The notes under the pieces were generated by a model that saw nothing but the letters and a program-made list of their open reading frames with translations, ran no database searches and was not told the DNA's origin. Source: Strigamia acuminata (Eukaryota). From it: a stretch of 64,000 nucleotides of DNA. The stretch lies in NCBI GenBank assembly GCA_949358305.1, contig OX442314.1, positions 25,668,001 through 25,732,000 of the forward strand, written 5' to 3'. How positions within the stretch are numbered: position 1 is the first letter of the stretch; each line of letters begins with the position of its first letter. Both the position numbers and the translations under genes were made by a program. Shown piece by piece: positions 408 through 43,095 of this stretch.

Positions 408-702
408 GAATGCTAAAAACAATGACGGCTATTCGTTTCAGAATTTCATAAAGGGGTAAATAAATTTTTTTAAATACTTTACGACCGCAAACATTCGATT
501 GAATAGCATAAATAGTTTTTGCTTGAGTTTGTGATATTTCTCATTTTTCTCACAAAAAATAAATTCGTACAAAAATTAAACCAATGTAATTTTATAAGTT
601 CAACCATCAACTATATCAGTTATTGATAAAATCATAAAAGCAATTACCGATAACACACAGCCTTAGGCAGCCAGACTACAATATCTCACTGATGATATAA
701 GA

Positions 703-4546: not shown

Positions 4547-5139
4547 AGAATTTAATTCATTAACTTTTAAATGTTGAAAAACTTGACGTAATTTCCCTGT
4601 TTTAAGTATTAAATCTATTAGTAAAGTATGTAGAAAAAATTATCCACCCAATAAAAACCTGGAATTATTAGCCAATAATTATTTTCATTTCAGAACAATA
4701 TTTTTGGCAGTTTAGATAAATAGCAAAAAAAGAAAATTATATTGTAGGATGGAAAACAAATTACAAATACAGTAACATGTGTCGCGCTTGGTCTGTCAGT
4801 TTTTTTTGGGTTGACGTTCACACTCAGAATCTAAGAGTTGAGGCTCGGTCGAGAGCTGAGTGAGAAGTGATTATGTAAAGTTAAATTGCCCAGAAAAAAA
4901 CGTTTAGTGGACGTATATGCTCGAAACGTCCAAGCCCTTCCGGGTGATGTATTAGGGGCCGAAATACACAATGTCCAACAAAACCAAAACAAATTCGTGT
5001 GATATAATATGCGAAATGTCATTTCAATGTCATTTAATGAGTCCAAACATCAGTTATTGATAAGATAAACTATAAACCAACTTAACCGATAACAGCATAA
5101 GACAGTCACAGTCACATAGAACATCTTACTACTATAAGT

Positions 5140-7696: not shown

Positions 7697-8452
7697 TAAC
7701 CTTACAATAAACAGTACACCCCTTCAATACCTCAAATGAACCTCCGAACAAAGCTCACATTCATACAACAGACATGTAAACATAATAAACATAACAGTAA
7801 ACATAATAAATCATCTGATAACACGAGAATTTTGTGTAAAATCCTGTGCTGACTGTAGTGGAACGATAAAAACAGCACGACCTTTGGATCGTCGTATTCA
7901 AGGTCTCTCTTAGTCACGAATTTCATAGTTGTATCAAATGATGTTTTCATTATGACTCAAAATGTTGAATTAATATTTCATTATCTTTGTAACACAAGGA
8001 GGTCATCATCCTATTAACAAATAGTTCTAATACTCATGTTGAGTTAATTCTTTATTGAATGTCACCTGGTGTAAAACATGTAACACAGTTGCAGTGTTTT
8101 ATTAAAGGCGCCAACTTTTTCCAATATTTTTTCATTTTTTATTTTAAAATACTCATACGCACTGATCACGTTAAATTAAGATAGAATTACGTTTTATGTT
8201 TTGTGTTTTGGATTTGCACTAAATTGTCTCACCAAATCCCTAATTCTAATTTTCGTTCGCTCAAATTAATTAATTTTAGTAAGTGCGTACTAAAAAATCC
8301 CAACAAAGCGCCAACCATTTAATCTAATCATTCAAGTCTCATATACCAAGGTCAAAAGCAAATGGCCATCATATCTATTTTTTTAAATATCGTCGTATAT
8401 AAAGGATTATCATTATCAACATCAACCTTTTTAGCACATAACTGCAATGACA

Positions 8453-11400: not shown

Positions 11401-12370
11401 TGGAGTATTCTTTACATCCTAAAATATCCAGAAATAAGAAAAAAGGTTTTACAAGAAAATAACGATGTTATTGGTCATAGCAGAGATCCTACTTTCAGTG
11501 ACAAAAACAACATGCCGTATACTAGTGCGTATCTGTTAGAGGTCCACAGACACGCATCAATAGTTCCATTCACTCTTGTTCACAGGTATGTAAAATCTAA
11601 TTTAATTTAGTGTTTACTATAATTAATTTACTTAAATAGCAACATGGAAGAAACCAATGTTTCTGGATTCACTGTTCCAAAACACTCTTACGTAATAGGA
11701 AATTTATGGGCAGTACATCATGACAAAGATTTGTGGGAAAACCCTGATGAATTCAATCCCGATAGATTCTTGAATGAGCAAGGAGAAGTTCAAAAATCAG
11801 AATATCTTATTCCCTTTTCTATAGGTAAAATTTTGTTTTGGTTGGATTTTCGTGACTTAATATATAGTGAGAAGTTGTCAGAAGTAATATACCAGGGGGG
11901 GGGGGATAATAGTCAGGATAATAAGGTCAGCACGAATCTTCTTAATTATCAAGTAATTAGATGAATGCACTACTGGATTGCGCACTGCAAATGGCGTCCA
12001 GTTTGTGAGACGACGCATTGTTGAGGCGAAGTGACGTCATAAATGCTCTCCAACTTCCTGTTTCGCGTCTTACTCCACCAATTTCAATCCAACTTGATAT
12101 CGCAATTTTTTCCATCGCAAATCCGGTCATCGCAAATTTGGACCTCGCCCATATAAACAATTTAATATTCCTTTTATTCTTTTTGATTTATTTTAAACAG
12201 GTAAACGAAACTGCATTGGCGAGTCTCTAGCAAATACTCAAAATTTCCTATACTTTACAACATTACTTCAAAATTTCAAGATAAGACTCCCAAAAGGAAA
12301 TACTGTGTCGATGGACTTTCAATTTGGGGTTGCATTGAGTCCCAAACCATTCAAAATTTGTATGACCTAA
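8453..12370 (+). CDS. Cytochrome P450, CYP2 clan (CYP-C), 8 exons, about 496 aa
   Basis: Exons 8453-8667, 8723-8856, 8936-9042, 9379-9647, 10861-11015, 11330-11585, 11640-11824, 12201-12370. [24 protein letters not shown]. Alternative ATG at 8447. Confidence 0.9.
10385..10699. mobile_element. Tc1/mariner-type MITE in CYP-C intron 4
   Basis: TA|CAGGGTG...CACCCTG|TA with subterminal inverted repeats AATAATTTGGATAcGGTTGAA / TTCAACCcTATCCAAATTATT. Confidence 0.8.
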
Positions 12371-12420
12371 AAGCAGAGCAACAATTTTACAATCAATAAA
12401 ATCATTTATTTACTAAGCTA

Positions 12421-12865
12421 TACTCTTTCCACACTCAAAATACCCCCCTGGAAGTTTGGCTCCCATTGGCCAAGCCATTTCACTTGTGTACTGATACAAA
12501 AAGAAGACCCAAAACACCAGAAATGCATTACACAGACATACAGATGTAAATACAAATACAGACATTGCAATCGATTTCCCATTGTTTGGAAATTGTTTGC
12601 TCTCCAGACATAGCAAGCAATAAAATTAAAATAAATGCATTTTATTTAAAAACAACATAAAATTTTATTTTCAAATTAGAAAATATATTTTATTACACAA
12701 TAACATTAAATGTAGATCATTTTTTCCATTATTATTCAGGAAAAGACTCAAAATCAAAGGGAACTACTTTTCCTCATAGCAGTAGTTCAACTGCAGTTCT
12801 GAGTGATCAGATTAGGCCAATGGGAGCCAAGCTTCCAGGGGGGTATTTCGAGTGTGGAAAGAGTA
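12421..12865. mobile_element. MITE downstream of CYP-C
   Basis: About 50-bp TIRs TACTCTTTCCACACTCaAAATACCCCCCTGGAAGtTTGGCTCCCATTGGCC, TA flanks. Confidence 0.85.
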
Positions 12866-13189
12866 TAGTCAACGTGGATTCTCATTATCATTAATAATCT
12901 TAGGCTTTGCACAGGATAATACAACTGCCTTGTCCCATTTGCTTCAAAAATATATTGTAATTATATAATCTTTTGCATTGAAATTAATAACCACGGATTT
13001 TAGACCTACAAAGACAATTGATCGTTGCACGCTGATCTAATATCTTTAGTTAATAATTGATAGGCATGAATACACAATAACCCTTTGTTTTATTTTTCTT
13101 TAAATTGAGAAAAGAAATTAATACGACCCATAATTTATCATCAAGCAAGACAAACATAACATGTCAACATCTATCAACTGACCATAATT

Positions 13190-13256
13190 ATGGACTTAAC
13201 AAATTTTACCAATATTCTGTTTGAACACTACCAGACCATTATTCTGATAGCAATTA
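13190..13256 (+). pseudogene. CYP-D-like 5' fragment (upstream region from about 12995 plus the first 22 codons) cut by a Copia insertion
   Basis: MDLTNFTNILFEHYQTIILIAI is nearly identical to the CYP-D start at 15658. The upstream region is also duplicated. Confidence 0.85.
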
Positions 13257-15080
13257 TGATGGAACAATGTTTTTACAAATTAACAATATATCTTTCTGTT
13301 GCTATGTAACTAAATGTTATCAATAAAAATGAAGATGAATGTGTGAATGTTCCCAAGTCTCCATTGCATGTTGGACTCTTCATAGGTTAAGAGCCCGAAC
13401 ACAAATTTCTTATGTTGGATATGGACTGTTTTTTGGCTAAATAATTAACTTACAGTACATATTGTGAGCAAGGTTGGAAATCTAAAGTTTTCATACAGTT
13501 TTAAATGTTCCATAAGAGTTAGGCCCTGAATTGTTTGGGTAATAAGCCTCATCCTGAACTGATAAAGTGATAAACCTCATACTCATTGCAAACCCAGAAC
13601 CAAGGTGTTTTGGCAGAGTTGAAAGTCCAATTAAAGACCGACTTGGCAAGAATCCAAATAAAATCTAGCAAGACAATTTTGGAATATATTGGGCGCACTA
13701 CAGCAGTAGCTCAGGAGCTCCAACCAATGGTAGTAGTAACTGTTATACCAGAACTTTGCTCACACATCCTGAAAGGATTGACTGCGGATTATATTAATTT
13801 TGCACGCAGCTGTGATGTGCTGGGGGTAAAAAAAAATAACAATTCAAGTCTTGAAATGTGCCTTATTGGCTGAGGACACAAAAAAGCCACAACAGCCAAC
13901 TTCAAATTTGGAGAACGCCAATTGGATACGAGGTGCAACCTCCTCTCAACGGGGCAAGGGTGACAGATCAGCCGGAGGTCAAACCCAACTCAAATGTTGA
14001 AATTGTGGGATCCCAGGCCATAGACAAGCGAAGTGTTGCTGCCCCCCAGCAGAGCCAAGACATTCAACCACTAACATCCGCAAACGTTGGGTCCCCAGAG
14101 GATGTGGATTATCTGGACCATCCACATCCAGGCAAGTAATAGATGTGGAGGATCAAATACCACAGTTCGCTCTTGTTGCAACGGACAGTAACCCTGCTCA
14201 AGTAGACAGGGAGAACAAACTTTTAATAGATCGAGAACAATTTGACCCTTGCATATGGTAAGACTTCACACAAGAGTGGAAACAGGAGTTTATTTACAAC
14301 ATTGGATAACTCATTCCCCAAGGTGGTTTCATTGGCTGATGGCAAAGATTAAAGCATCAGGAACTTGTGTAATGATGCTGAATATTTAGTTTGGTGATCA
14401 AGCCAGAGTACTCAAGTTGGAAGATACCTATTATGTGCCTGATTTGAGTGGTAATCTGCTATCAATTACCAGAATGACTGATTTGGGATATAAAGTGGCA
14501 TTTACCGCCAGTGGTTATACAGTTTCTACGATTGACAACGTGCAAGTGTTCCAAGCTTAATCCCATAGATGATTACAAACAAGAAACCTGAATGCACCTG
14601 CAATGGAGAAAAAAGCAGTAGTGATGGCTATTCAATCACAACCTCCATTGGCACCGCAGGTTGGCACACATAAACAATCGTGTCTTAAAAGATTTAATAA
14701 AGAAAAAGATGGTGATAGAGATGACAATTGACAAAGTTCATAAATGGAAATTGTGTGAGGAATGTGTGACAGCAAAGCACACCAGAAGCCAGTTTTTGCC
14801 TGCACCCTCAATCGGAGCCATGGGCCGCTACAGATGCTTCACGTAGAGCTTTGTTGTCTGATGCCACACCCTTCAATTGGAAGATCAGATTATATCATAT
14901 CTTCATGATCACAGATGACTACTCAAGGTGTTTATTCCCTCGTTTATTGTTGTCAAAGGTTGAGACTTCGCTAGTTTTTGAACAATTCATAGGTACACAC
15001 CAAAATAAGTTTGAAGCTTAAGTCAAGATGGTCCACTCAGATAATGGGACTGAATTTTAGAATCAGCAGCTCGGGGCAAT
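13257..15080 (+). mobile_element. Decayed, 3'-truncated Ty1/Copia retrotransposon
   Basis: Short TG..CA LTR 13257-13382, then GGTTAAGAGCCC (degenerate Copia PBS GGTTATGGGCCC). Broken zinc knuckle (C*NCGIPGHRQAKC), GAG-pre-integrase WHRRLAHIN...CEEC, integrase TDDYSR and HSDNGTEF; many stops and frameshifts. Confidence 0.85.
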
Positions 15081-15233
15081 TGTAGTTGGCACCAGTCGCC
15101 TCTATCCATTGCTGGTGCTGGTTTACATTCCCGCCAAAGTAGACTGTCCTCTTAAGACATAGTTCTAAGTAAAAAAAATAATTAAAAAGTGGGTAACCTT
15201 GGATTTTAGACCTAAAAAACATTGTTACGTTGC

Positions 15234-15307
15234 CAGGGCCGTTTCGACCTATGAGGCAAAGAGGCGGCCGCCTCAGGCGGCACACTGACAGGGACGGCAA
15301 TTTTGGC

Positions 15308-15350
<43 letters not shown>

Positions 15351-15467
15351 AAAAATATTTTCGAACGTATTCAGAAATAGGTTTTTTTGGGGGGGGGGGG
15401 AGGGGGGGGGGGTGGGCGGCATTTTTAATGCTCGCCTCACCACAGATATTTACTAGGAACGGCCCTG
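15234..15467. mobile_element. hAT-type MITE upstream of CYP-D
   Basis: TIR CAGGGCCGTT/AACGGCCCTG with a perfect 8-bp TSD TACGTTGC (15226-15233, 15468-15475). Absent from the paralogous upstream region near 13020. Confidence 0.9.
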
Positions 15468-15657
15468 TACGTTGCATAATAAAAACAATATCCTGTTGCA
15501 CACTAATCTAATATCTCCAGTTACTGTAATAATTGATAGCTATGAATACATGATAACTTAATTTTTTTTAAATTAAGAAAAATATTTAATATGACCAGGA
15601 ATTTATCATCAAGCAAGACAAACATAACAAGTCCACATCTATCAACTGACCATAATT

Positions 15658-16225
15658 ATGGACTTAACAATTTTCACCAATATTCTGTTTGAACACTACC
15701 AGACCATTATTCTGATTGCAATTATAACTACAATTCTATATTTTAAACCTCGAAAAAATTTACCATCAGGACCATGGGGATTGCCCATAGTAGGATATCT
15801 TCCTTTCTTGAAACAACCGGCTCATATAGGTCTCACAGAATTAGGAAAGAAATATGGTAATGTCATGAGGTAAACTTTAAATAAAATAAACCTTAACATT
15901 AAATAAACTTTTTAAAAAAAAATTTATTTGCAGTTATTACTCAGGGAGTGAGTTGGTGATAGTGTTGGGTGATTATAGCGCCATGAAAGAAGCATTTGTG
16001 AAGCAAGGAAATATATTTTCCGGAAAACCAAAAGCCAATGCTTTTCGATTCAATAAAACTGATAAAGGTGCAATTCTAGAATAAGCTTACTGAGTGATTA
16101 ACATGATTACGGTTTCAGGTATTATGATGGCAGAAGGCGAAATAGCAAGTCAACACCGTCGATTTATTGTATCAAGTCTAAGAGATTTTGGAATGGGGAC
16201 AACTAGTTTCGAGTCACGAATAATG
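15658..16225 (+). pseudogene. CYP-D copy 1, truncated after exon 3
   Basis: Exons 15658-15869, 15934-16067, 16119-16225. Intron 3 is replaced at 16443 by the LTR block and no exon 4 follows. Confidence 0.88.
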
Positions 16226-16442
16226 GTATTGACCTGTTGCCTCTACTTTAAAGAAACTTTGAAGTTTCGTAGCAATTAATTCAAAAATTTGATCAAAAAC
16301 AAACCTGGGTAATGCAAGATTCGAGGCACCTCTCAGTAAAAAAGAAAAAAGAAAAAGACGTGATAATTACCAAGTAAAGCCTCCTGATTCCGAAAATGAC
16401 ATTTAAAAGTGTCGGAAATGGTGGCTGTGCTCCCGCCATTGC

Positions 16443-18355
16443 TATGACGGTTTACAATGGCTATAAATGCCTATTTTCTATCAAGAAAGCGCTGTTGCGC
16501 CAATATGATGGTATTTTTACAATATTCTGTGTAAAACTGATAAATGTCTAGAATAAAGTCATTTATGATGTTTCAAATACAAAGATGTTCGTTTATTAAG
16601 AATAAACACTAATTTCCACATGATACTAAAGTATCACGGCATAATTACGAAGATTCGTCTGCTAAAACCCGCATTTGTCAATGCTCCATATTGCCACTAG
16701 ATGGCGCGATCGCAATTAGCGATAAATTCGAATACGAACTTGAAAACCTCATGATTAAATATAAACGTATATTTAATCAAGTGAATAAATTGTGTTAAAT
16801 ATTAATATAAATATATATTAAGTATCTGACATTGTTAAATACAATGTAACTTCCATTTCTGCGGGACAGAATGTTTAGCGATCAATCGGTCAACCGATCA
16901 ATCTGATTGGTGGAACCCATTTCCGGTCCTGGGTATCCAGTTCCGGTTGTAACAAGGATTAGCATAATTTGCATAAATGCTCCTCCGTATCCACTTCCGG
17001 TGATACGGGATTGGAGGGATTCGTGGAACCCATGTTCCAATTGGATGACTGGATTAATCCTTAAATCCAGTCAGGTTATATAAACCCAAACAATCGGCCA
17101 TTCCGCAGCTCTGTTTGATTATTTCTGTTTGGTATTGTTACTTAAGAAGTATGATTCGTTGTTCACGTAAAAAACCTTTTGGTTCTTTGTTGATTTATTC
17201 GCAAAGAACCGTTGCATGATTCTACAGAATCATGCCACCGCCGGCAATTGAAGTCGAAGTGCTGGGATTATTATGTTGCATAAATGTTACAGTCTACGGT
17301 TGCGACGCCGAAGGAGAACCCGCCGTTGTGCAATTCAGTATCCTCCGGACAGGACCAAGTTGTCTTTTTCGGTATGAACGTATTCCGTTACCACGAGTAG
17401 CATCGGTATTGTTGAGAATCGGTTCCTTCACCTGATGGTGCCAAAGCAGTCTGTTTTACAGTAACCACGAGTAGCACCAAGTGTTTGGCAAGCTGATTCT
17501 CATGGTATTCGATGCCAAAGCAGTCGGTCTATTATTAGTACCGCGAGAGATAAAACTGCTGTGCGGAGCCGCGAGCTATCGACCCCTGTGTACGTGGTAC
17601 CGTCAACCACTCGATGGACGACCGTGCTGCGACGCCGGGGACGCTTGATACCGTTCTGCATGGCAAGGCGTATATTCTAATCGATGGCAATTGTGTGTTG
17701 CGACGGGAAGCTTAATCTTCATTTTATTTATAACAGCAAAACTTAAACTCGACAACCAGTTGGACCAAAATCAAGTCAGAAGACTTAATCTCATATTGAA
17801 CTCAATATAACCGATAAGTTGACGACAACTTATTCCCGAAATATCTAAATAAGAATTCACAACGATATGAATTAAATATAATTCATAAGTGGAATATTGA
17901 TAAGTAAATGAATACATTTACTTACACCAATATCCTCCCAAAGTTGTGGCGGTGCAGACAAAGTCAACCGCAATGCTCAGATCATTCGATTTATCGACGT
18001 GCGATAGTTTACACAGCGAACCAAGGAAACCAGCGAAGCCGTATCGGACTCCAGGACACAGCCATCCGGCTTAAGATGACATCTATAATCAGGTCGAGCG
18101 ATGGGGAAACCGCTCCCATATTCCAGACCCGTAGTGATATTATTCTAGGGCCAGTTGGCCAATTCTTTGTATAGTTTAATAGCTGATTTAACTTGCCAAA
18201 TGTCGGCATTAGTCCTATGTATAATTTAGCCTTGATATTATTGTTTACCAACAATAAACTGTCTTGTATTTATCTCGTATTGTATTCACTGTTTATTTAT
18301 TGCGATCTCTTCCCGGTACCATTGTTAAATGGGAGTTGTGGTCGTCACCGTCACA
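16443..18355 (+). repeat. LTR 1 of the non-autonomous element (lacks the initial TG)
   Basis: Starts TATGACGG, ends CCGTCACA, followed by CG and the PBS. AATAAA near 18254. Confidence 0.85.
16693..16707 (+). promoter_or_regulatory. CTCF-type motif in LTR (also 24207-24221)
   Basis: GCCACTAGATGGCGC matches the bilaterian CTCF consensus. Binding is untested. Confidence 0.6.
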
Positions 18356-18960
18356 CGTGGAGGTCCCACCGAGATTAGGTTGCAATTAAATTCGATTGAA
18401 TTGCAACAGTGAATATTGGAGATAAATATTTAACTAAAAGATTTAAGTTAAAAATAGACAGATTAAATTTTCAGTTTATATTTCCATGTGAAGAAGTTAA
18501 ACTGATGAAATAGAAATACGTAGTAGATTTTCCTTCATTATTTTCGTTTGAAGATTTTAGGGATTTCAAAGACTACCACCTAATCTCACACGTGGAGGTC
18601 CCACCGAGATTAGGTTGCAATTAAATTCGATAGAATTGTAAAAGTGAATTTTGAGATAAATATTTAACTAAAAGATTTAGTTAAAAAACAGACAAGTTTC
18701 AAACCATGTTTATTTTCTTGAGAAACACCAAAACAGTCCTTTAACTAGGAATTTCGGAAGTTATAGACCTATCACACGATCACTGAAATAGGTTGCAAAT
18801 TAATTCGATCGAATTGCAAAAGCGAATCTTGAATCCGATATTAACTAAAAAATTTTAGTTAAAACAGACAAATAGATTTTCAGTTTATATTTTCATGTGA
18901 AAAGTTAAACTGACGAAATGGAAACGTTTAGTGAACTCTCTTTACTATTTTCGTTCGACA
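18351..18960 (+). repeat. 235-bp PBS-bearing tandem repeat: two PBS copies plus one degenerate unit
   Basis: TCACACG-PBS-TAGGTTGCAATTAAATTCGAT at 18351 and 18586. The degenerate unit at about 18772 lacks the PBS core. Confidence 0.9.
18358..18375 (+). other. Primer-binding site, tRNA-Gln (repeated at 18593, 25871, 26106, 26341)
   Basis: TGGAGGTCCCACCGAGAT is the 18-nt complement of the tRNA-Gln 3' end. Confidence 0.9.
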
Positions 18961-21530
18961 ATTTAAGGAATACGAAGTATTTTAAATAAGAAATCAAAAA
19001 AGTTTCGAGTGAAATAAGAATACAGATATTTTTTTCGAAGTTTGTTTTATTTCGAAAAGCTAAAAACATACAAGTTTAGAAGGCGGACTTCTTACGAATT
19101 TATCTTTCCACCTGAAAAGTTAAAACGAAGAAAACACCGCAACTATTTGGAAATATTTACAAGAAATTAAGTTTCTTGTAACTGTACGTCGACACCGATA
19201 GCCAGCGACCACGCGCCATAGCAATACGCGTCGATCTCCGTATCAAACGCAGCAGGGAAGCTACTCAAACCTTCAACGCAAGGTGCGAACGAATGCTTGG
19301 AAATTATGGCGGACAACAGATAAAAGACAGCGGAGAAATGTTACAGAAGGTTCGTAGAGATTTATTTAAGTGTCGCGAACTAATTTTTCCACTGCCATCG
19401 GTACCAAAGATAATTTAGTTGTTGGAGAAAAACAACACACTCCATTTCGCAGAAAAGATTTGCAAATCGAAATGAATATTACCTTTATTTGAAGGAATTA
19501 ACTATTTTCACAAAAAGTACATTTTTTCCTTCGGGACAATGGAAATTAAGAAAATATAAAATGGCGGCGAATGAAGTTGCCGACCACATAGAATAGTATT
19601 TTTTACATTGAAAGTTACGAATCACGATAAACGCTTTCCCTCGGAAAAGTAAAAGGATTTCATTCAATCTTTCCTTTCGGAAATTTAACAGTGTTTTAAG
19701 TTTCCAACGATATTTGGGTCTCCCAAATTTTGAGAATTTCTAAATGAAATTTAGCTGTTTGAAAAACAACGAATATTTTTAGTAATCTAATCGGACATTT
19801 TCCCACATGATTTCTTAAAACCGGAATAACAAATCCATTTGTGGCTATGAACTTTGCCACATGAAATATTTACGGAGCGAATATTTTTTAATTGGATTGA
19901 AGCTTTAAAATCAGATAGCTGATTTAAACGAAGAAAATAAGTTTCAAAGTAATTATTTTTCTTTCGGAAAAATCAAATAAATCACCGCTGATGAAAAGTT
20001 GTATTTTTCCATTCGAAAAAACTAAGAATTGCACAAGATTTATCTTCTATTTTGAACATAGATTTTATTCGGAAAAGGAAAGATTCTAGATACATTATTT
20101 TTCTCTAAAAATTAAGAATTTAGTCAATTTTCCTAAAGGTTAATGGAATGTCATCATATATTTCGTTCGTAATTTACGTGTTAAAGTTTAATCAGAAAAA
20201 CGATTGAATATGTTTTATTTGCGATAAGTAAAAGAAAGGTTCTTTAAAAATGGAATTTCGATGCAAATCCCACAGTAAAGGGAATGTTATGTGTGAGCAA
20301 TTAACGAAAAGTTGGAATAACTTCATTTTATTTCATTCAAAAGTAGTTGTGAAAAATCAATTTCAAATATTTTTCAAAGAAAAATTATTTTTATCGGAAA
20401 AAAGTAATTTACATGTCCTCGCGCGGACCGAGTAGTAAACTGCTTAATTGTGACATCGATACTGTTATTGTGTCACGTGTTATACGGAATTCCAAACCAG
20501 TGAATTACGAATTTTGGCGCGATAGGAATAGAAGTTTGACAGTGAAAGTTCTCCAGATTTGTCTTTTCATTTGAAAAGTTCAAATTGAGGAAATGCTGCA
20601 GCAGATGAAGGTATTTACGACAATTGAGATTTAAATATTCTTTCATTCAAAAGATAAAAGATCTCTGCAAAAACATCTCGTTATTAGAGATAAGGGGGAC
20701 GAAAATTATTAAAACGAATAATCAAAGACACGTCCTTCGTAAATATCGCAAAGGAATAACTAATTGTGAAAACAATTGTCCGCTCAGGAAAAGTGGAATT
20801 TAGCTAGATATTTTCTTTCGAAAAATCAAAGCAATTGTCATCAAAAAAGAAAGATTTGATGAATAATTTTTACCCAAAAGTCTAAAGGATTGTCGAATAG
20901 TTTTCTCCCGAAAAACAAGTACACATTTGTACCAATAACTTTATCGTTTAAAGTAAAATTTCGAATATTTTCTTTTGGAAGATTAGAGAATTAGATAATT
21001 TTTCTCGCAAAACAAATTTAAAGAATTTTAACGAATTTTTATTTGTTAAAAAAATTTGTTAAAAAAGGGGGAGATGGATGGTGAAAATTTATTTTTTCAC
21101 ACTCGAAAAATGGAATTTAAACCCGAAAAAGTAAAGACTTGGTCAAATTATTCTTCCTATTGGAAATGAATACACAATGTTGGGAATCGAAAATAGATTT
21201 CAATTACAAAGGAATGATTATTTGAACGATAATTGAATAAGAATAAGAAAAATTGAGAGTTTGAGAAAACTTTATTAAAGTTGTGGTTGTAACGATATCA
21301 CACACTAACGGAATAATTAAAAGAAAAATATTTTTTGAAGAAAAGTTATTTAATTATTTGGATTGGTAAAAATCCCAAAGTTCAAGAAGATTGAAGTAAG
21401 TTTATTTTATTTTCATTTGAAAAATACAATATTTTACGAATGTCTTCCCGAAGGAATTTTATTTTATCGGTAAAATTGAATCTCGAAGGGAACGGACTTA
21501 GTAGAGAACTACTAAATAGATGTAACGTCC

Positions 21531-21670
21531 TTTATACCATTGGCCGACACTAACATCCGCCAATCAGAAGTTGGGAGATCTAGGGATCCCCAGCCCCCTG
21601 CTATTAAAGGAGGACCAGATCAGATACTGATCATTCGCATCCAGACCAGACCAGAAGACGTGTTCCAGAG
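21531..21670 (+). promoter_or_regulatory. Putative internal Pol II promoter for the orphan ORF (also about 29281-29420)
   Basis: ATTGG/CCAAT boxes at 21539 and 21560, TATTAAA at 21602, Inr-like TCATTC at 21631 (A is 31 nt after the TATA start). GC-richer island about 250 bp before the ATG. Confidence 0.55.
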
Positions 21671-21879
21671 TCATCTTGACCACGCCGTCCCGATTTCAGT
21701 CACGATTCGAATTTTGTGTGCCGTGTAACCTGCAAAAGCTAACACGTGTCAAACAAACGCGAAGTTTAATTTTATTTTGTCAAAAGTAAAGTTTAGAAGT
21801 GTTTCTTGTTGAAAAGTGTATTATATTCGTCTTCTTTATAAATTAAAGAATTAAAATCGTCAGATTTTGAATTTTTTTT

Positions 21880-23361
21880 ATGGCTCAAAAACCATTGAAT
21901 ATGATCGATCCAAAAGGAAATAATAAGCAGACAAACTTAAATTTAAGTTCTGTACCACTTGGCGATCAAACAGAAAAGATTCCCGATCATTTTACTCTGT
22001 ATTGTAATCGTCATGGACTGGATAAAACCAAGTTTAAAAATATAATCGAAGCTTCAGACTATGTAAAAGCTAGGAACTGGCGAGATCGTACCCAATCTCA
22101 ATCTTCACATCAAGATCCAGTACGGAATCCACAAACATACAGCCGAAACTTAGTGAATCAAGATTCTCATACTATGTTTCAAACATCCAGTAGGGGATCT
22201 AAGTTAGAAAAGTTTAAACCACCTAATTCGGTAGATAAGGGGGAAGAGAATTATAAACCTAATAATTCTCATCCAGAGAGTTCGTTAACTAACCAGTCGG
22301 TTGTTCAGAACAAATTAAAACTCGTTTACAATCGAGATCAGCTAATTTCAGTTCGATATGCTAATCCAGCTGAAGCACAACGATATGTGGCTAGCCTTAA
22401 TCTGTCGATTAACCTACCGCTATCAAAAGAATTGGGAACCGTAAACAAAAGTTTTGGGCCACCAATATCAACGCAAAGGAAAGATATTCGGACTCCAAAC
22501 AAACATTTGCAGTCAAATAACGTACAACAACGTGCCCGATCGCCGATCACAAACTCATGTTTGCGGACGTATGATTTGTCTACCAAGAAGAGTCCCCAGC
22601 CAAGACAATTCTACCTAACGCCCATTTCAAATCGAAAAAAAGTCAAGCAAACTTTTCCCTTGAAAAAGTATTACCAACACGATAATGAGAATGATTTTAA
22701 ACCTAAAAAAGAAAGTTTTTTGACTAACCCACGGGAGATCCGGTATCAATTCGAACAGTATTGTAAACAATACCAGTTAAATTCAGCTGAATTTAAAAAT
22801 ATAAACGAAGCGCAACAATTCGTATTTCGAAATCAATACCGTAACCAACGACTAAAACCCGTCCCAGTCGTCAATCTGACGGAGATACAACAATTTGCGT
22901 CTGGAAAGCAACCCTGCAATATCCAGAATAATTCATCTCAACGAGAGGAATTAAGAACTTCAAAAAAGCGTTTTCGGTCACCAAGTCCAGCTGGTGATGA
23001 AGAAACTTCAAATACAAACCAACATGTTCAAAAACTGACTGAAAACCCAGGTTTCCAATCATCAGTTCCACGACTTAGAGTCAAATATAGATCCCCTCGT
23101 TTGTTGCGGGATTTCACAATTCCAAATATGGGTCCTTTCCACGTATGGTTTTCCAATGAGGGTCCCATTCATGTATGGTTTTCCAGAGATGACCTAAAAC
23201 AAAAAGTTGGGTCGTCACGGTCATTTACACTGCCAAGTCAGTACACTGTATGTAACTGCCCAAAGGAAAAACGTCGAAAGAAATCAGTACAGCAGGCTGA
23301 GAGATCTCGGAAATTCGCAAATATGCGAGCTCAATATTTAGCAAAGAATCATGTTGATTAA
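21880..23361 (+). CDS. Orphan 493-aa basic, K/N/Q/S-rich protein carried by the non-autonomous LTR element
   Basis: Long ATG ORF in very AT-rich surroundings, open in both units. No gag, protease, RT, integrase or env motifs recognised. Confidence 0.75.
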   Translation: MAQKPLNMIDPKGNNKQTNLNLSSVPLGDQTEKIPDHFTLYCNRHGLDKTKFKNIIEASDYVKARNWRDRTQSQSSHQDPVRNPQTYSRNLVNQDSHTMFQTSSRGSKLEKFKPPNSVDKGEENYKPNNSHPESSLTNQSVVQNKLKLVYNRDQLISVRYANPAEAQRYVASLNLSINLPLSKELGTVNKSFGPPISTQRKDIRTPNKHLQSNNVQQRARSPITNSCLRTYDLSTKKSPQPRQFYLTPISNRKKVKQTFPLKKYYQHDNENDFKPKKESFLTNPREIRYQFEQYCKQYQLNSAEFKNINEAQQFVFRNQYRNQRLKPVPVVNLTEIQQFASGKQPCNIQNNSSQREELRTSKKRFRSPSPAGDEETSNTNQHVQKLTENPGFQSSVPRLRVKYRSPRLLRDFTIPNMGPFHVWFSNEGPIHVWFSRDDLKQKVGSSRSFTLPSQYTVCNCPKEKRRKKSVQQAERSRKFANMRAQYLAKNHVD

Positions 23362-23954
23362 CATGATATGATACACAAAGATTCCCCGATTATAGTGTAA
23401 ACAGAAAATCCTCTTCTAAAAATCATGACCTCTCTTCTAAAGAAAAGGGGGACAAAATATAAAGTTAAAATTAACAATTCTCGAAAAGTAATATTACAGT
23501 ATTAAAAGACAACTAGTTTAAATTAAAATTAGTCAATTGTACAAAGAATACCAAGTGACTCCGGTCATGACAATTAAGGGGGACATTTTGATTCTTAAAT
23601 TGTCAACTCTTATCATCTAAAAGCTATTTATTGTATATTTATAGCGATACATCTGACTAGGCATATGAAATAAATATTTTGTGATAACACAAATGATGAT
23701 TTTATGTATGACGAAAGTTTCTTCAAAAAGAAGACTTGGAAATAAATTCTGGACTTGAATTTAGGCTATTAGAAAAGATTATTTCGGCAGAAAATCAGAA
23801 CTTAGATAATTCAAGTTAGTTTATGTAAACTCAAATTCGAAATTGGAAGTCACGGTATCTCCAAGATACATCAAGTCCGAAAATAGCATTTATGCTAATT
23901 AGGAGAATAACGAAAACTCTATAAAATATTATATAGTTGTGTTATTAAGGGGGA

Positions 23955-25868
23955 TGTATGACGGTTTACAATGGCTATAAATGCCTATTTTCTATCAAGA
24001 AAGCGCTGTTGCGCCAATATGATGGTATTTTTACAATATTCTGTGTAAAACTGATAAATGTCTAGAATAAAGTCATTTATGATGTTTCAAATACAAAGAT
24101 GTTCGTTTATTAAGAATAAACACTAATTTCCACATGATACTAAAGTATCACGGCATAATTACGAAGATTCGTCTGCTAAAACCCGCATTTGTCAATGCTC
24201 CATATTGCCACTAGATGGCGCGATCGCAATTAGCGATAAATTCGAATACGAACTTGAAAACCTCATGATTAAATATAAACGTATATTTAATCAAGTGAAT
24301 AAATTGTGTTAAATATTAATATAAATATATATTAAGTATCTGACATTGTTAAATACAATGTAACTTCCATTTCTGCGGGACAGAATGTTTAGCGATCAAT
24401 CGGTCAACCGATCAATCTGATTGGTGGAACCCATTTCCGGTCCTGGGTATCCAGTTCCGGTTGTAACAAGGATTAGCATAATTTGCATAAATGCTCCTCC
24501 GTATCCACTTCCGGTGATACGGGATTGGAGGGATTCGTGGAACCCATGTTCCAATTGGATGACTGGATTAATCCTTAAATCCAGTCAGGTTATATAAACC
24601 CAAACAATCGGCCATTCCGCAGCTCTGTTTGATTATTTCTGTTTGGTATTGTTACTTAAGAAGTATGATTCGTTGTTCACGTAAAAAACCTTTTGGTTCT
24701 TTGTTGATTTATTCGCAAAGAACCGTTGCATGATTCTACAGAATCATGCCACCGCCGGCAATTGAAGTCGAAGTGCTGGGATTATTATGTTGCATAAATG
24801 TTACAGTCTACGGTTGCGACGCCGAAGGAGAACCCGCCGTTGTGCAATTCAGTATCCTCCGGACAGGACCAAGTTGTCTTTTTCGGTATGAACGTATTCC
24901 GTTACCACGAGTAGCATCGGTATTGTTGAGAATCGGTTCCTTCACCTGATGGTGCCAAAGCAGTCTGTTTTACAGTAACCACGAGTAGCACCAAGTGTTT
25001 GGCAAGCTGATTCTCATGGTATTCGATGCCAAAGCAGTCGGTCTATTATTAGTACCGCGAGAGATAAAACTGCTGTGCGGAGCCGCGAGCTATCGACCCC
25101 TGTGTACGTGGTACCGTCAACCACTCGATGGACGACCGTGCTGCGACGCCGGGGACGCTTGATACCGTTCTGCATGGCAAGGCGTATATTCTAATCGATG
25201 GCAATTGTGTGTTGCGACGGGAAGCTTAATCTTCATTTTATTTATAACAGAAAAACTTAAACTCGACAACCAGTTGGACCAAAATCAAGTCAGAAGACTT
25301 AATCTCATATTGAACTCAATATAACCGATAAGTTGACGACAACTTATTCCCGAAATATCTAAATAAGAATTCACAACGATATGAATTAAATATAATTCAT
25401 AAGTGGAATATTGATAAGTAAATGAATACATTTACTTACACCAATATCCTCCCAAAGTTGTGGCGGTGCAGACAAAGTCAACCGCAATGCTCAGATCATT
25501 CGATTTATCGACGTGCGATAGTTTACACAGCGAACCAAGGAAACCAGCGAAGCCGTATCGGACTCCAGGACACAGCCATCCGGCTTAAGATGACATCTAC
25601 AATCAGGTCGAGCGATGGGGAAACCGCTCCCATATTCCAGACCCGTAGTGATATTATTCTAGGGCCAGTTGGCCAATTCTTTGTATAGTTTAATAGCTGA
25701 TTTAACTTGCCAAATGTCGGCATTAGTCCTATGTATAATTTAGCTCATCCATATTGTTTGCCAACAATAAACTGTCTTGTATTTATCTCGTATTGTATTC
25801 ACTGTTTATTTATTGCGATCTCTTCCCGGTACCATTGTTAAATGGGAGTTGTGGTCGTCACCGTCACA
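23955..25868 (+). repeat. LTR 2 (shared central LTR, 1914 bp)
   Basis: Preceded by PPT AAGGGGGA. TGTATGACGG...CCGTCACA imperfect inverted termini, followed by CG and PBS-Gln. Confidence 0.88.
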
Positions 25869-26710
25869 CGTGGAGGTCCCACCGAGATTAGGTTGCAATT
25901 AAATTCGATTGAATTGCAACAGTGAATATTGGAGATAAATATTTAACTAAAAGATTTAAGTTAAAAATAGACAGATTAAATTTTCAGTTTATATTTCCAT
26001 GTGAAGAAGTTAAACTGATGAAATAGAAATACGTAGTAGATTTTCCTTCATTATTTTCGTTTGAAGATTTTAGGGATTTCAAAGACTACCACCTAATCTC
26101 ACACGTGGAGGTCCCACCGAGATTAGGTTGCAATTAAATTCGATTGAATTGCAACAGTGAATATTGGAGATAAATATTTAACTAAAAGATTTAAGTTAAA
26201 AATAGACAGATTAAATTTTCAGTTTATATTTCCATGTGAAGAAGTTAAACTGATGAAATAGAAATACGTAGTAGATTTTCCTTCATTATTTTCGTTTGAA
26301 GATTTTAGGGATTTCAAAGACTACCACCTAATCTCACACGTGGAGGTCCCACCGAGATTAGGTTGCAATTAAATTCGATAGAATTGTAAAAGTGAATTTT
26401 GAGATAAATATTTAACTAAAAGATTTAGTTAAAAAACAGACAAGTTTCAAACCATGTTTATTTTCTTGAGAAACACCAAAACAGTCCTTTAACTAGGAAT
26501 TTCGGAAGTTATAGACCTATCACACGATCACTGAAATAGGTTGCAAATTAATTCGATCGAATTGCAAAAGCGAATCTTGAATCCGATATTAACTAAAAAA
26601 TTTTAGTTAAAACAGACAAATAGATTTTCAGTTTATATTTTCATGTGAAAAGTTAAACTGACGAAATGGAAACGTTTAGTGAACTCTCTTTACTATTTTC
26701 GTTCGACAAT
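25864..26710 (+). repeat. 235-bp PBS-bearing tandem repeat: three PBS copies plus one degenerate unit
   Basis: PBS at 25871, 26106 and 26341 (period 235). The extra unit explains the offset shift from 7514 to 7749. Confidence 0.92.
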
Positions 26711-29628
26711 TTAAGGAATACGAAGTATTTTAAATAAGAAATCAAAAAAGTTTCGAGTGAAATAAGAATACAGATATTTTTTTTCGAAGTTTGTTTTATT
26801 TCGAAAAGCTAAAAACATACAAGTTTAGAAGGCGGACTTCTTACGAATTTATCTTTCCACCTGAAAAGTTAAAACGAAGAAAACACCGCAACTATTTGGA
26901 AATATTTACAAGAAATTAAGTTTCTTGTAACTGTACGTCGACACCGATAGCCAGCGACCACGCGCCATAGCAATACGCGTCGATCTCCGTATCAAACGCA
27001 GCAGGGAAGCTACTCAAACCTTCAACGCAAGGTGCGAACGAATGCTTGGAAATTATGGCGGACAACAGATAAAAGACAGCGGAGAAATGTTACAGAAGGT
27101 TCGTAGAGATTTATTTAAGTGTCGCGAACTAATTTTTCCACTGCCATCGGTACCAAAGATAATTTAGTTGTTGGAGAAAAACAACACACTCCATTTCGCA
27201 GAAAAGATTTGCAAATCGAAATGAATATTACCTTTATTTGAAGGAATTAACTATTTTCACAAAAAGTACATTTTTTCCTTCGGGACAATGGAAATTAAGA
27301 AAATATAAAATGGCGGCGAATGAAGTTGCCGACCACGTAGAATAGTATTTTTTACATTGAAAGTTACGAATCACGATAAACGCTTTCCCTCGGAAAAGTA
27401 AAAGGATTTCATTCAATCTTTCCTTTCGGAAATTTAACAGTGTTTTAAGTTTCCAACGATATTTGGGTCTCCCAAATTTTGAGAATTTCTAAATGAAATT
27501 TAGCTGTTTGAAAAACAACGAATATTTTTAGTAATCTAATCGGACATTTTCCCACATGATTTCTTAAAACCGGAATAACAAATCCATTTGTGGCTATGAA
27601 CTTTGCCACATGAAATATTTACGGAGCGAATATTTTTTGATTGGATTGAAGCTTTAAAATCAGATAGCTGATTTAAACGAAGAAAATAAGTTTCAAAGTA
27701 ATTATTTTTCTTTCGGAAAAATCAAATAAATCACCGCTGATGAAAAGTTGTATTTTTCCATTCGAAAAAACTAAGAATTGCACAAGATTTATCTTCTATT
27801 TTGAACATAGATTTTATTCGGAAAAGGAAAGATTCTAGATACATTATTTTTCTCTAAAAATTAAGAATTTAGTCAATTTTCCTAAAGGTTAATGGAATGT
27901 CATCATATATTTCGTTCGTAATTTACGTGTTAAAGTTTAATCAGAAAAACGATTGAATATGTTTTATTTGCGATAAGTAAAAGAAAGGTTCTTTAAAAAT
28001 GGAATTTCGATGCAAATCCCACAGTAAAGGGAATGTTATGTGTGAGCAATTAACGAAAAGTTGGAATAACTTCATTTTATTTCATTCAAAAGTAGTTGTG
28101 AAAAATCAATTTCAAATATTTTTCAAAGAAAAATTATTTTTATCGGAAAAAAGTAATTTACATGTCCTCGCGCGGACCGAGTAGTAAACTGCTTAATTGT
28201 GACATCGATACTGTTATTGTGTCACGTGTTATACGGAATTCCAAACCAGTGAATTACGAATTTTGGCGCGATAGGAATAGAAGTTTGACAGTGAAAGTTC
28301 TCCAGATTTGCCTTTTCATTTGAAAAGTTCAAATTGAGGAAATGCTGCAGCAGATGAAGGTATTTACGACAATTGAGATTTAAATATTCTTTCATTCAAA
28401 AGATAAAAGATCTCTGCAAAAACATCTCGTTATTAGAGATAAGGGGGACGAAAATTATTAAAACGAATAATCAAAGACACGTCCTTCGTAAATATCGCAA
28501 AGGAATAACTAATTGTGAAAACAATTGTCCGCTCAGGAAAAGTGGAATTTAGCTAGATATTTTCTTTCGAAAAATCAAAGCAATTGTCATCAAAAAAGAA
28601 AGATTTGATGAATAATTTTTACCCAAAAGTCTAAAGGATTGTCGAATAGTTTTCTCCCGAAAAACAAGTACACATTTGTACCAATAACTTTATCGTTTAA
28701 AGTAAAATTTCGAATATTTTCTTTTGGAAGATTAGAGAATTAGATAATTTTTCTCGCAAAACAAATTTAAAGAATTTTAACGAATTTTTATTTGTTAAAA
28801 AAATTTGTTAAAAAAGGGGGAGATGGATGGTGAAAATTTATTTTTTTCACACTCGAAAAATGGAATTTAAACCCGAAAAAGTAAAGACTTGGTCAAATTA
28901 TTCTTCCTATTGGAAATGAATACACAATGTTGGGAATCGAAAATAGATTTCAATTACAAAGGAATGATTATTTGAACGATAATTGAATAAGAATAAGAAA
29001 AATTGAGAGTTTGAGAAAACTTTATTAAAGTTGTGGTTGTAACGATATCACACACTAACGGAATAATTAAAAGAAAAATATTTTTTGAAGAAAAGTTATT
29101 TAATTATTTGGATTGGTAAAAATCCCAAAGTTCAAGAAGATTGAAGTAAGTTTATTTTATTTTCATTTGAAAAATACAATATTTTACGAATGTCTTCCCG
29201 AAGGAATTTTATTTTATCGGTAAAATTGAATCTCGAAGGGAACGGACTTAGTAGAGAACTACTAAATAGATGTAACGTCCTTTATACCATTGGCCGACAC
29301 TAACATCCGCCAATCAGAAGTTGGGAGATCTAGGGATCCCCAGCCCCCTGCTATTAAAGGAGGACCAGATCAGATACTGATCATTCGCATCCAGACCAGA
29401 CCAGAAGACGTGTTCCAGAGTCATCTTGACCACGCCGTCCCGATTTCAGTCACGATTCGAATTTTGTGTGCCGTGTAACCTGCAAAAGCTAACACGTGTC
29501 AAACAAACGCGAAGTTTAATTTTATTTTGTCAAAAGTAAAGTTTAGAAGTGTTTCTTGTTGAAAAGTGTATTATATTCGTCTTCTTTATAAATTAAAGAA
29601 TTAAAATCGTCAGATTTTGAATTTTTTT

Positions 29629-31110
29629 ATGGCTCAAAAACCATTGAATATGATCGATCCAAAAGGAAATAATAAGCAGACAAACTTAAATTTAAGTTCT
29701 GTACCACTTGGCGATCAAACAGAAAAGATTCCCGATCATTTTACTCTGTATTGTAATCGTCATGGACTGGATAAAACCAAGTTTAAAAATATAATCGAAG
29801 CTTCAGACTATGTAAAAGCTAGGAACTGGCGAGATCGTACCCAATCTCAATCTTCACATCAAGATCCAGTACGGAATCCACAAACATACAGCCGAAACTT
29901 AGTGAATCAAGATTCTCATACTATGTTTCAAACATCCAGTAGGGGATCTAAGTTAGAAAAGTTTAAACCACCTAATTCGGTAGATAAGGGGGAAGAGAAT
30001 TATAAACCTAATAATTCTCGTCCAGAGAGTTCGTTAACTAACCAGTCGGTTGTTCAGAACAAATTAAAACTCGTTTACAATCGAGATCAGCTAATTTCAG
30101 TTCGATATGCTAATCCAGCTGAAGCACAACGATATGTGGCTAGCCTTAATCTGTCGATTAACCTACCGCTATCAAAAGAATTGGGAACCGTAAACAAAAG
30201 TTTTGGGCCACCAATATCAACGCAAAGGAAAGATATTCGGACTCCAAACAAACATTTGCAGTCAAATAACGTACAACAACGTGCCCGATCGCCGATCACA
30301 AACTCATGTTTGCGGACGTATGATTTGTCTACCAAGAAGAGTCCCCAGCCAAGACAATTCTACCTAACGCCCATTTCAAATCGAAAAAAGGTCAAGCAAA
30401 CTTTTCCCTTGAAAAAGTATTACCAACACGATAATGAGAATGATTTTAAACCTAAAAAAGAAAGTTTTTTGACTAACCCACGGGAGATCCGGTATCAATT
30501 CGAACAGTATTGTAAACAATACCAGTTAAATTCAGCTGAATTTAAAAATATAAACGAAGCGCAACAATTCGTATTTCGAAATCAATACCGTAACCAACGA
30601 CTAAAACCCGTCCCAGTCGTCAATCTGACGGAGATACAACAATTTGCGTCTGGAAAGCAACCCTGCAATATCCAGAATAATTCATCTCAACGAGAGGAAT
30701 TAAGAACTTCAAAAAAGCGTTTTCGGTCACCAAGTCCAGCTGGTGATGAAGAAACTTCAAGTACAAACCAACATGTTCAAAAACTGACTGAAAACCCAGG
30801 TTTCCAATCATCAGTTCCACGACTTAGAGTCAAATATAGATCCCCTCGTTTGTTGCGGGATTTCACAATTCCAAATATGGGTCCTTTCCACGTATGGTTT
30901 TCCAATGAGGGTCCCATTCATGTATGGTTTTCCAGAGATGACCTAAAACAAAAAGTTGGGTCGTCACGGTCATTTACACTGCCAAGTGAGTACACTGTGT
31001 GTAACTGCCCAAAGAAAAAACGTCGAAAGAAATCAGTACAGCAGGCTGAGAGATCTCGGAAATTTGCAAATATGCGAGCTCAATATTTAGCAAAGAATCA
31101 TGTTGATTAA
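29629..31110 (+). CDS. Second copy of the orphan 493-aa protein
   Basis: ATG at 29629. Differs from copy 1 by H/R, N/S, Q/E, E/K and a few synonymous changes. Confidence 0.75.
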   Translation: MAQKPLNMIDPKGNNKQTNLNLSSVPLGDQTEKIPDHFTLYCNRHGLDKTKFKNIIEASDYVKARNWRDRTQSQSSHQDPVRNPQTYSRNLVNQDSHTMFQTSSRGSKLEKFKPPNSVDKGEENYKPNNSRPESSLTNQSVVQNKLKLVYNRDQLISVRYANPAEAQRYVASLNLSINLPLSKELGTVNKSFGPPISTQRKDIRTPNKHLQSNNVQQRARSPITNSCLRTYDLSTKKSPQPRQFYLTPISNRKKVKQTFPLKKYYQHDNENDFKPKKESFLTNPREIRYQFEQYCKQYQLNSAEFKNINEAQQFVFRNQYRNQRLKPVPVVNLTEIQQFASGKQPCNIQNNSSQREELRTSKKRFRSPSPAGDEETSSTNQHVQKLTENPGFQSSVPRLRVKYRSPRLLRDFTIPNMGPFHVWFSNEGPIHVWFSRDDLKQKVGSSRSFTLPSEYTVCNCPKKKRRKKSVQQAERSRKFANMRAQYLAKNHVD

Positions 31111-32659
31111 CATGATATGATACACAAAGATTCCCCGATTATAGTGTAAACAGAAAATCCTCTTCTAAAAATCATGACCTCTCTTCTAAAGAAAAGGGGG
31201 ACAAAATATAAAAGTTAGAATTAACAAAATTTTGAAAAGTAATGCTACATTATTAAGACAACTAGTTTAATTAAATTAGTCAATTGTACAAAGAATACCA
31301 AGTGACTCCGGTCATGACAATTAAGGGGGACAATTATGATTTCTTAATTGTCAACTCTTATCATCTAAAAGCTATTTATTGTATATTTATAGCGATACAT
31401 CTGACTAGGCATATGAAATAAATATTTTGTGATAACACAAATGATGATTTTATGTATGACGAAAAAAGCTTAACTGGTTCGGGGCCGATGGAATGGTCCC
31501 GGAGGCTATTTAAGACGTAATCCTGAGGGGGGGTGTCAAATGCCTTTGACACATCAGTTTTAGCCAGATTGAGTGTGTTAGCTTGATCACATGAGTGAGT
31601 GATGTAAAGGTACAGGGAAACGAAACTTTAGCATTGAAGCATTATTGTGTCGTACTATAACATGTTATAGTTATGACTTGATTCGTCAACAGTTGTGCTC
31701 GCCAAGATTTTTTGAAAAATAGTGATTGTCTACCTCTTTACATAGCTCCATTACGCCTTTTTTTAAGGGCCTTGGAGACCCATACATCCAATTTAGAAAA
31801 GTTTCCTGGGATATAGACGGTCTCAAATCTGTTTTAGTTTTTAATTTTATCTCATTCTGTTTACAAGTTATGAGATATATTGTAAATTGTCACTTTTTGG
31901 AGTTTTTAATTTTTTTCTCTTTAACTATTCATTTTTTTCCAAAAAACTTTTAACGAAATGATAGCTCTAATAATCCTTTAAATCCTCCTAAAACCATTTT
32001 TACTTGTGAGAAATAGTTTCTGAGAAATTTCAAATATTAAAAGTTTCAAAAATAGGAATATGCCATTTTTTTGGCAAGGAGTTGTATATTTTTATAATAT
32101 AAAATTTTAATTTTAATTTTAATGTTTTTTTATATGGATTATAATTACGAACTAATTATAATTAAACTATAATGATCAAAGAATCAATAAATTGAAACTA
32201 TTAAAGCCAGATTGTAATTAGCGTTATTTGTGCCACGAAAATAATTCACCTGCATTAGAATTAAGTACAGTAATTAAAATATTCAGCTATAAATGTCGGT
32301 AGTCAAAAGTTGCGTGTCATTCAGTTCCATCTTGACAATTCATCATCAATGCTCCTGAATAACTTTGGTAAGCATAAATAGTCATGTCTAGTATTATTTT
32401 ATTTTAGGCCTACTCTGATTTCTTTTAAATTCTATTACTGCGTTAACTTTTTAGTGTAAAAAAACAAACCTTTGATACACGTTTTCAAAAGAGCGTACTT
32501 ACATCAGACTTTATTGATTTTTTGCATTAGAATTAGAAAGAGTCCAACAATCTCAAATTTTATTTTATTTTTTAAATTTAAAAACAAAAAAAGCAAAAAG
32601 TGACTGGTTAATAAAGCCGTTAGTTAGTTAGGACATAGAGTAAAGACAGTAAGAGCTGT

Positions 32660-43093: not shown

Positions 43094-43095
43094 CG

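Follow-up and report, generated by a model that had tools for sequence, protein, structure and literature searches.

By the textbook rule, a long terminal repeat (LTR) element carries one primer site, and genomes with two sites are, to our knowledge, known mainly as engineered vectors. Retroviral vectors engineered to carry a second primer site are reported by Voronin and Pathak (2004), under a title announcing frequent initiation at both; with two sites on one RNA, the options are the same as here, namely priming at both and the loss or gain of the spacer in strand transfer. Gypsy-type elements have tandem repeats in their untranslated leaders, the number of which varies between copies, and we know of none with a primer site and LTR end inside the repeat, whereas both are included in the leader repeat described here. 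A literature search, with most subscription papers outside its reach, returned no report of natural multiple primer sites.

Elements in the TRIM/LARD range and tandem forms with a shared LTR, as described in PMC13570524 and PMC11899658, resemble the present element in having LTRs, a primer site and a polypurine tract without gag-pol, and in their LTR-internal-LTR-internal tandem; repeated primer sites are unmentioned in the text examined from these two papers. Our element differs from them in its animal host, its 1.9-kb LTRs, an intact orphan open reading frame (ORF) and a leader repeat containing the whole primer site. In HIV-1 of the MAL type, according to PMC3185550, part of the primer site is duplicated (23 nt) downstream of it, and a U5-leader helix 1 flanks the working site and is described as recognised by reverse transcriptase. 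The likeness lies in the flanking U5-leader helix and in the fact that active lineages tolerate additional, naturally occurring primer-site sequence downstream of the working site; here, in contrast, whole 18-mers with an LTR-end 7-mer occur in units of 186-235 nt that vary in number and bring their own masking strand.

The window, a stretch of 64,000 nucleotides from contig OX442314.1 of Strigamia acuminata, contains two LTRs of about 1.9 kb that belong to a non-autonomous LTR retrotransposon dimer on the forward strand (as are all features below) in DNA of about 75% A+T. These long direct repeats match at 99.2%, with 9 differing columns in the alignment. LTR 1 (16443..18355, 1913 nt, 3' end CCGTCACA) is missing its first two bases, TG, whereas LTR 2 (23955..25868, 1914 nt), common to both internal regions, has both TG...CA ends and is directly preceded on its 5' side by a polypurine tract (23944..23954). 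The second internal region (25869..31464) is cut off before its polypurine tract, with no third LTR; the layout in the window is two LTRs and two internal regions, where a shared-LTR tandem has three LTRs and two internal regions. Because the internal regions differ at 31 columns, in addition to the 9 LTR columns, they look like two parent copies. Both outer ends of the dimer are cut in the window, and host flanks unlike each other begin behind position 18355 in three public runs (5, 5 and 8 contigs, which agree at about 0.5), which points to dispersed insertions.

The element is a non-autonomous LTR retrotransposon without copying enzymes of its own: no gag-pol was detected in it by Pfam on its ORF or by tblastn with the gag, pol and ORF3 of the neighbouring gypsy. 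Counted from its first ATG, the ORF has 493 codons and is intact in both internal copies (21880..23361 and 29629..31110). It matched no Pfam family, and no relatives were found in a search of 5.8 billion proteins (near lengths only), among 1.84 billion representatives, or in an Atlas search by features. A LARD in the strict sense has a long internal region without any ORF, an assignment that the intact frames exclude. The neighbouring gypsy is not supported as a helper, since DNA similarity is absent and its primer site is different. The window contains no tRNA gene, an Rfam search of positions 16000-34000 came back empty even with E allowed up to 1, and exact-pattern scans of viral contigs and metagenome contigs returned zero matches.

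The primer-site 18-mer matches the 3' end of tRNA-Gln(UUG); the same 18-mer is a tRNA-Gln3 (UUG) primer site in PMC1592299, and PMC3564811 labels it a threonine site. The scan returned exactly five copies with 0 mismatches, at 18358, 18593, 25871, 26106 and 26341, against a chance expectation of 0.01, and no others at up to 3 mismatches. This bears out the claim, made in an earlier sequence-only reading, of two perfect sites behind LTR 1 and three behind LTR 2. Site 1 (18358..18375), 2 nt behind the LTR, is likely the working site; site 2 (18593..18610) is an inner site with 12 of its 18 bases predicted to be paired. The 7-mer TCACA-CG precedes each of the five sites and likewise stands at the start of the degenerate units (18772 and 26520), and every unit retains a CA followed by 2 nt ahead of the site. 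Old primer sites inside the LTR were considered separately and rejected, as 58 of 200 shuffles matched the best score.

The leader order is A-B-C behind LTR 1 and A-A-B-C behind LTR 2. Unit A of element 1 (18351..18585, 235 nt) comprises the LTR-end 7-mer, the primer site, leader hairpins and a masking tail; element 2 carries two copies (25864..26098 and 26099..26333, with sites at 25871 and 26106), and all three copies are identical. Unit B (18586..18771, 186 nt) has a head 92% like A and a shortened, diverged middle. Unit C (18772..18971, about 200 nt, 78% like A) has lost the primer-site core and kept the flanking stem and leader hairpins, and is the degenerate unit without a core that had already been noticed. 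In element 2, B and C together occupy 26334..26719, with B at 26334..26519 (site at 26341) and C from 26520. A possible fourth unit, much decayed, aligns locally and weakly to A at 19063..19134 (8 of 200 shuffles score equally). Decay rises with distance from the LTR, from the identical A copies through the head of B and unit C to this faint fourth unit.

The sequence-only reading had described a repeating 235-bp unit, each copy rebuilding the LTR end plus primer site. The array is real and the 7-mer and site do recur, but only A measures 235 bp, C lacks a site, and the LTR-shared piece of unit A is merely 7 nt, the remainder aligning no better than shuffles (145 of 200 equal). Two other derivations were rejected: the unit tail as a shortened U5 copy, its alignment not exceeding shuffles and the sharing being limited to the 7-mer plus a short strand that can pair, and a repeated module of polypurine tract plus LTR start, equalled in score by 115 of 200 shuffles. 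The 18-mer is, as had been observed, exact where the unit has diverged, but this carries little weight: A and B differ at 8 of 111 columns, an exact 18-mer has a chance probability of P ~0.26, and special conservation of the 18-mer over its flanks is unsupported by this comparison. The identity of A and B covers 46 nt (7 before the site, the 18 of the site, 21 after it) and, continuing 21 nt beyond the site, is a block rather than the 18-mer alone. The piece kept in A, B and C is the 10-mer immediately behind the site.

Folding predicts different surroundings for the first and the inner sites. The first site would lie within a 10-bp U5-leader stem, in which the U5 strand 18299..18308 pairs with 18377-18386 around the site (pair probabilities 0.73-1.0); the stem persists when both sites are forced open, and is predicted to outlast tRNA binding. 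The inner sites lack such a stem in the predictions. The end of unit A would instead close each of them into a local hairpin, on RNA as well as on minus-strand DNA. The masking tail (18578..18587) is the exact reverse complement of 18606-18615, a stretch made up of the inner site's final 5 nt and the 5 nt that follow; it pairs with a probability of 0.94-0.97, and 11 of 5000 shuffled tails reached 10 bp. The predicted cost of opening is 10.2 kcal/mol for site 1 against 14.8-15.5 kcal/mol for site 2 in six of eight folding settings, 8.2-9.9 against 13.8-14.8 kcal/mol in the other two, and 1.9 against 8.7 on minus-strand DNA. Against masking, the middle site of element 2 costs only 11.8 kcal/mol at a pair span limit of 150, and a tRNA-site duplex (-37.3 kcal/mol) greatly exceeds the hairpin in stability, which would leave only a kinetic form of masking.

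Single contigs from public runs of two studies span two primer sites, and a contig of run X1 covering 18368-18615 matches unit A with 0 differences and crosses 18590 unbroken (run X6, with only five short LTR-like pieces, was left out). In X1, the depth of the unit A contig was 11413, compared with 9191-9524 in three neighbouring contigs, a ratio of 1.20-1.24 that places the mean number of A units above one; the copy-number variation first proposed for the array holds up. The inner site is altered in four of the seven contig types among those listed, as it is in unit C. It is intact in the deepest X1 type, and two diverged X3 types, one with 28 substitutions in 242 nt and the other, over about 130 nt, with 10 substitutions plus 17 gap letters, have no listed change in the covered part of it, which makes two-site leaders old and family-wide. 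In contrast to the two-site vectors, the present element has an inner site that folding predicts to be closed, and no integration was seen at the inner end, no loose end lying behind 18590 (the CA before the inner site) among the 18 of 73 loose ends listed; with 5-8 visible host junctions per run, a minority of insertions ending there would escape notice.

Our preferred explanation, held with moderate confidence, is that the leader is a tandem module containing the tRNA-Gln site, in which priming is likely confined to the first copy, those further in are probably passengers kept masked, and growth proceeds by template switching or unequal crossover. A minus strand ending at the first site would re-anneal, on a co-packaged RNA, to the head of an inner unit, where 46 nt are identical, creating a new A copy and refreshing the site of the newest inner unit; older units would be pushed outwards and lose their site there. 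Unequal crossover within the same 46-nt block would give the same product, so that the two routes look alike in the sequence data used. The persistence of two-site leaders would then be explained by the hairpin, which would keep inner sites from priming freely and restrict wrong annealing during the second strand transfer. Among the origins suggested from the sequence, a by-product of strand transfer fits best.

A second, tentative possibility is that selection acts on the repeated leader structure itself: a packaging or dimerization module, multiplied for better packaging by a helper and amplified by a primer-site ratchet, with an anti-primer-site strand evolved to silence the accompanying sites. 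Units A, B and C all retain hairpins behind the site (z -2.6, -1.1 and -1.4), even where the site is lost, and inside such a hairpin is a 14-nt self-complementary motif (18389..18402) that emerged from the palindrome scan and the folds and may be a dimerization signal. This palindrome has one G.U pair in A, is perfect in C (18802-18815) and is broken in B. The pair in question covaries: the G.U of A is replaced by G-C in unit C and, through 18394 G>A, by A-U in related contigs of three runs. It would close a 2-nt loop within one strand, which fits a duplex of two molecules. Window-type A also has one extra base in both tail and leader relative to the pair formed by the B tail and C head. However, the covariation is limited to one pair and the compensation to one indel, the palindrome does not survive in B, and such hairpins arise easily in DNA so rich in A+T. 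If this possibility were true, the anti-primer-site strand would be a natural switch for the number of primer sites per RNA, and opened sites could be tRNA-fragment sinks.

It is unlikely that the inner sites are functional, binding extra tRNA-Gln or reverse transcriptase or soaking up 3' tRNA fragments, and so giving a parasite an edge. The strength of the tRNA duplex relative to the hairpin, the average unit A count and the CA plus 2 nt ahead of every site would agree with function, as would the intact inner site of the deepest X1 type and the unaltered X3 types, which also run counter to our preferred explanation. However, folding predicts inner sites that open less readily than site 1 and lack a U5-leader stem, most listed types carry alterations there, no inner-end junction was among the loose ends listed, and the exactness of the 18-mer in B is within chance; the earlier suggestions of primer or enzyme capture and tRNA-fragment decoys find little support. 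That the third site is a local assembly or replication stutter of one copy, an outcome that had been named as fatal to the array, is very improbable: the two A copies of element 2 are identical, the A-A junction cannot be bridged by contigs and the window may itself derive from run X1, but the depth of unit A in that run is beyond what one stuttered copy gives, two parent copies are likely, and the two-site state occurs within single contigs of two studies.

A young, apparently abundant natural family with two or three sites, in variable number and with a predicted masking strand, provides a direct test of primer-site choice, of the U5-leader stem as the mark of a working site in a retrotransposon, and of the idea that reverse transcription is what expands leader repeats at the primer site. 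Should the inner sites prove to be mere passengers, the family would be a tidy case of tolerated duplication.

The primer-binding site (PBS) 18-mer occurs exactly five times in the window, where 0.01 occurrences are expected by chance. A window scan confirmed as perfect the two copies behind LTR 1 (18358, 18593) and the three behind LTR 2 (25871, 26106, 26341) proposed by the sequence-only reading, and no additional match was found within the window at up to three mismatches. Identical letters are given for the tRNA-Gln3 (anticodon UUG) site in an excerpt of PMC1592299 and for the murine leukemia virus site, although assigned to threonine, in an excerpt of PMC3564811. The leader repeats follow the order A-B-C behind LTR 1 (A 18351-18585, B 18586-18771, C 18772-18971) and A-A-B-C behind LTR 2; no difference separates the three A copies, nor the two B copies across the 189 nt compared. 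The 235-nt repeat length first proposed applies to A but not to B (186 nt), and the LTR end thought to be rebuilt in each unit is a 7-nt piece that extends no further. Unit C, 78% similar to A, is the degenerate unit without a PBS core that had been described, and a possible fourth unit is faint, its alignment score being matched by 8 of 200 shuffles. A and B share a 46-nt identical block, with 8 differences in 111 columns; the 18-mer is exact in both despite their divergence, as had been remarked, but this has a probability of about 0.26 by chance.

Self-comparison delimited LTR 1 (16443-18355) and LTR 2 (23955-25868), each followed by an internal region; the first of these leads into a polypurine tract, and the second ends abruptly at 31464. 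Nine columns distinguish the two LTRs and 31 the internal regions, concentrated toward the 3' end; from these differences, the dimer looks as if it derives from two parent copies. Gag-pol is absent, and the sole ORF (493 codons) had no family and no relative in Pfam and protein-database searches; it is open in both copies (21880-23361 and 29629-31110), 7 substitutions apart, and the 350 nt preceding it begin like an LTR (TGTAAC) and contain a TATA-like motif, so that an internal promoter may lie there. Polypurine-tract-like motifs occur in the internal region at 20692, 21065, 22237, 23445, 23573 and 23944, one matching the real tract over 11 identical nt. Both outer breaks of the dimer (16443; 31453-31464) fall at the 9-mer that begins the LTR: the left end lacks the first TG, and the right end lies 3 nt past an internal copy of the 9-mer, with another copy at 23705.

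The dimer lies where two near-identical tandem copies of a CYP2-like P450 gene cluster meet (1-16443 and 33724-63042; 99.98-100% identity, with two differences across 7.9 kb and none across 8.5 kb); the duplication is very young and element-associated. Judged by its genes, the host is probably an animal. The junction also holds a piece of another retroelement; at 32631-33774, gag-like frames on the minus strand, broken and carrying zinc-knuckle-like motifs, belong to another retroelement and extend into the duplicated segment. A 56-nt inverted repeat pair (16364-16419 and 63144-63199; 80% alike) flanks the left break point in the uninterrupted copy. An intact-looking gypsy element (42273-55144), found in the second copy of the duplication only, has identical 822-nt LTRs, a 4-nt target duplication, gag (1051 codons), pol (1380 codons), a third ORF (933 codons) without a Pfam match, and a single primer site, which we take to resemble tRNA-Pro, preceded by the same CA-CG spacing as the dimer's. 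Its best named matches are only about 30-44% identical, and its proteins found no match in 16443-33800.

Folding predicts a 10-bp stem flanking site 1 (18358-18375, 2 nt behind LTR 1), between U5 18299-18308 and leader 18377-18386 (pair probabilities 0.73-1.0), which persists when the site is forced open; a comparable HIV-1 helix is described as RT-recognised in an excerpt of PMC3185550. Unit A closes with a stretch (18578-18587) that is exactly reverse-complementary to the inner site's last 5 nt and the next 5 nt, a complementarity achieved by 11 of 5000 shuffled tails. This tail hairpin is predicted to close site 2, the first inner site (18593-18610), with pairing of 0.94-0.97 and 12 of 18 site bases paired, in a region (18570-18700) with a folding z of -3.2; with site 2 forced open, little of it is left (0.19-0.29). 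Computed RNA opening costs for site 2 versus site 1 are 14.8-15.5 versus 10.2 kcal/mol in six of eight settings and 13.8-14.8 versus 8.2-9.9 kcal/mol in the other two, which had the least 5' context; on minus-strand DNA they are 8.7 versus 1.9 kcal/mol. Against masking, the tRNA-site duplex is computed to be worth -37.3 kcal/mol, and opening the middle site of element 2 takes only 11.8 kcal/mol under a short pair span.

During reverse transcription the minus strand terminates at the working site, which is re-copied from the tRNA every cycle. The strand's end could re-anneal to the identical head of an inner unit on the other co-packaged RNA, which would copy one extra A and give precisely A-A-B-C; unequal crossover within the 46-nt block would produce the same junction. 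Mis-annealing at the second strand transfer would lose one unit, and with the masking hairpin in place both priming at inner sites and the loss of units would be slower. Such steps would account, without selection on the extra sites, for units that are identical next to the LTR, inner sites that are fresh and decay that increases outward, and we lean towards the inner sites being passengers in a ratcheting leader repeat. That the repeat is a selected packaging module with silenced primer sites appears unlikely. Around unit C a shorter version of the stem is predicted to remain though the site is lost, and a 14-nt palindrome (18389-18402) has one variable pair: G.U in A, mismatched in B, G-C in C and A-U in related contigs.

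The element is present, as contigs only, in three public runs from two studies (X1, possibly the window's source, X2 and X3), and the comparison covers 40 of 49 substitutions, 12 of 30 indels, 18 of 73 loose ends and 24 of 750 pieces. At least seven of the contig types listed reach an inner site, which is intact in one of seven (the window type, X1); two X3 types have no listed change in the part covered, the depth-132 type reaching the site's end and the depth-672 type its first 7 nt. The site is altered in the other four: an X2 type (depth 2273) diverges after 12 nt, two X3 types lack the core, with loose ends behind 18578 and 18592, and one has a substitution at 18594. Mutation of the inner copies, which the sequence-only reading had named as grounds for refutation, is thus partly borne out, although types of low depth could be copies long dead; site 1 has no change among those listed. 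Priming at an inner site would extend the LTR to the CA at 18590, with host flank from there. In each of the three runs, contigs continue behind 18355 into unlike flanks (5, 5 and 8 contigs among those listed); no such flank occurs behind 18590 among the 18 of 73 loose ends listed, and an X1 contig runs through 18590 without a break. A minority of insertions ending at 18590 would escape, with so few junctions visible, and the inner sites are rather improbable as working extra primer sites.

Local assembly or replication stutter is very improbable as the source of the third site. A single X1 contig (18368-18615, no differences) joins the end of site 1 to all of site 2. This unit A contig has a depth of 11413, which is 1.20-1.24 times that of its three neighbours (9191, 9524 and 9496) and which we read as a mean of more than one unit A per element, although depth is not a copy number and truncated copies or an A-sharing subfamily could also raise it. 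A 242-nt X3 contig, from the other study, carries 28 substitutions and 12 gap letters and connects one site with the beginning of the following one; because this diverged contig links two sites, the two-site leader is, by sequence comparison, old and common to subfamilies. Window-type internal contigs (18666-19020) have depths of about 9500 in X1 and about 160-260 in X3, where a different subfamily (depth 672) is deeper, which hints that the subfamily that expanded was not the same in every sample. The PBS array is real and modestly variable in number.

The element is placed among the non-autonomous LTR retrotransposons, in which tandem arrangements are common according to excerpts of PMC13570524 and PMC11899658. 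A literature search of incomplete coverage found no report of natural whole-PBS arrays; the nearest natural parallel found is the 23-nt partial PBS duplication of HIV-1 MAL (excerpt of PMC3185550), whereas here whole sites are arrayed. The present case adds cross-subfamily evidence and a predicted masking strand.
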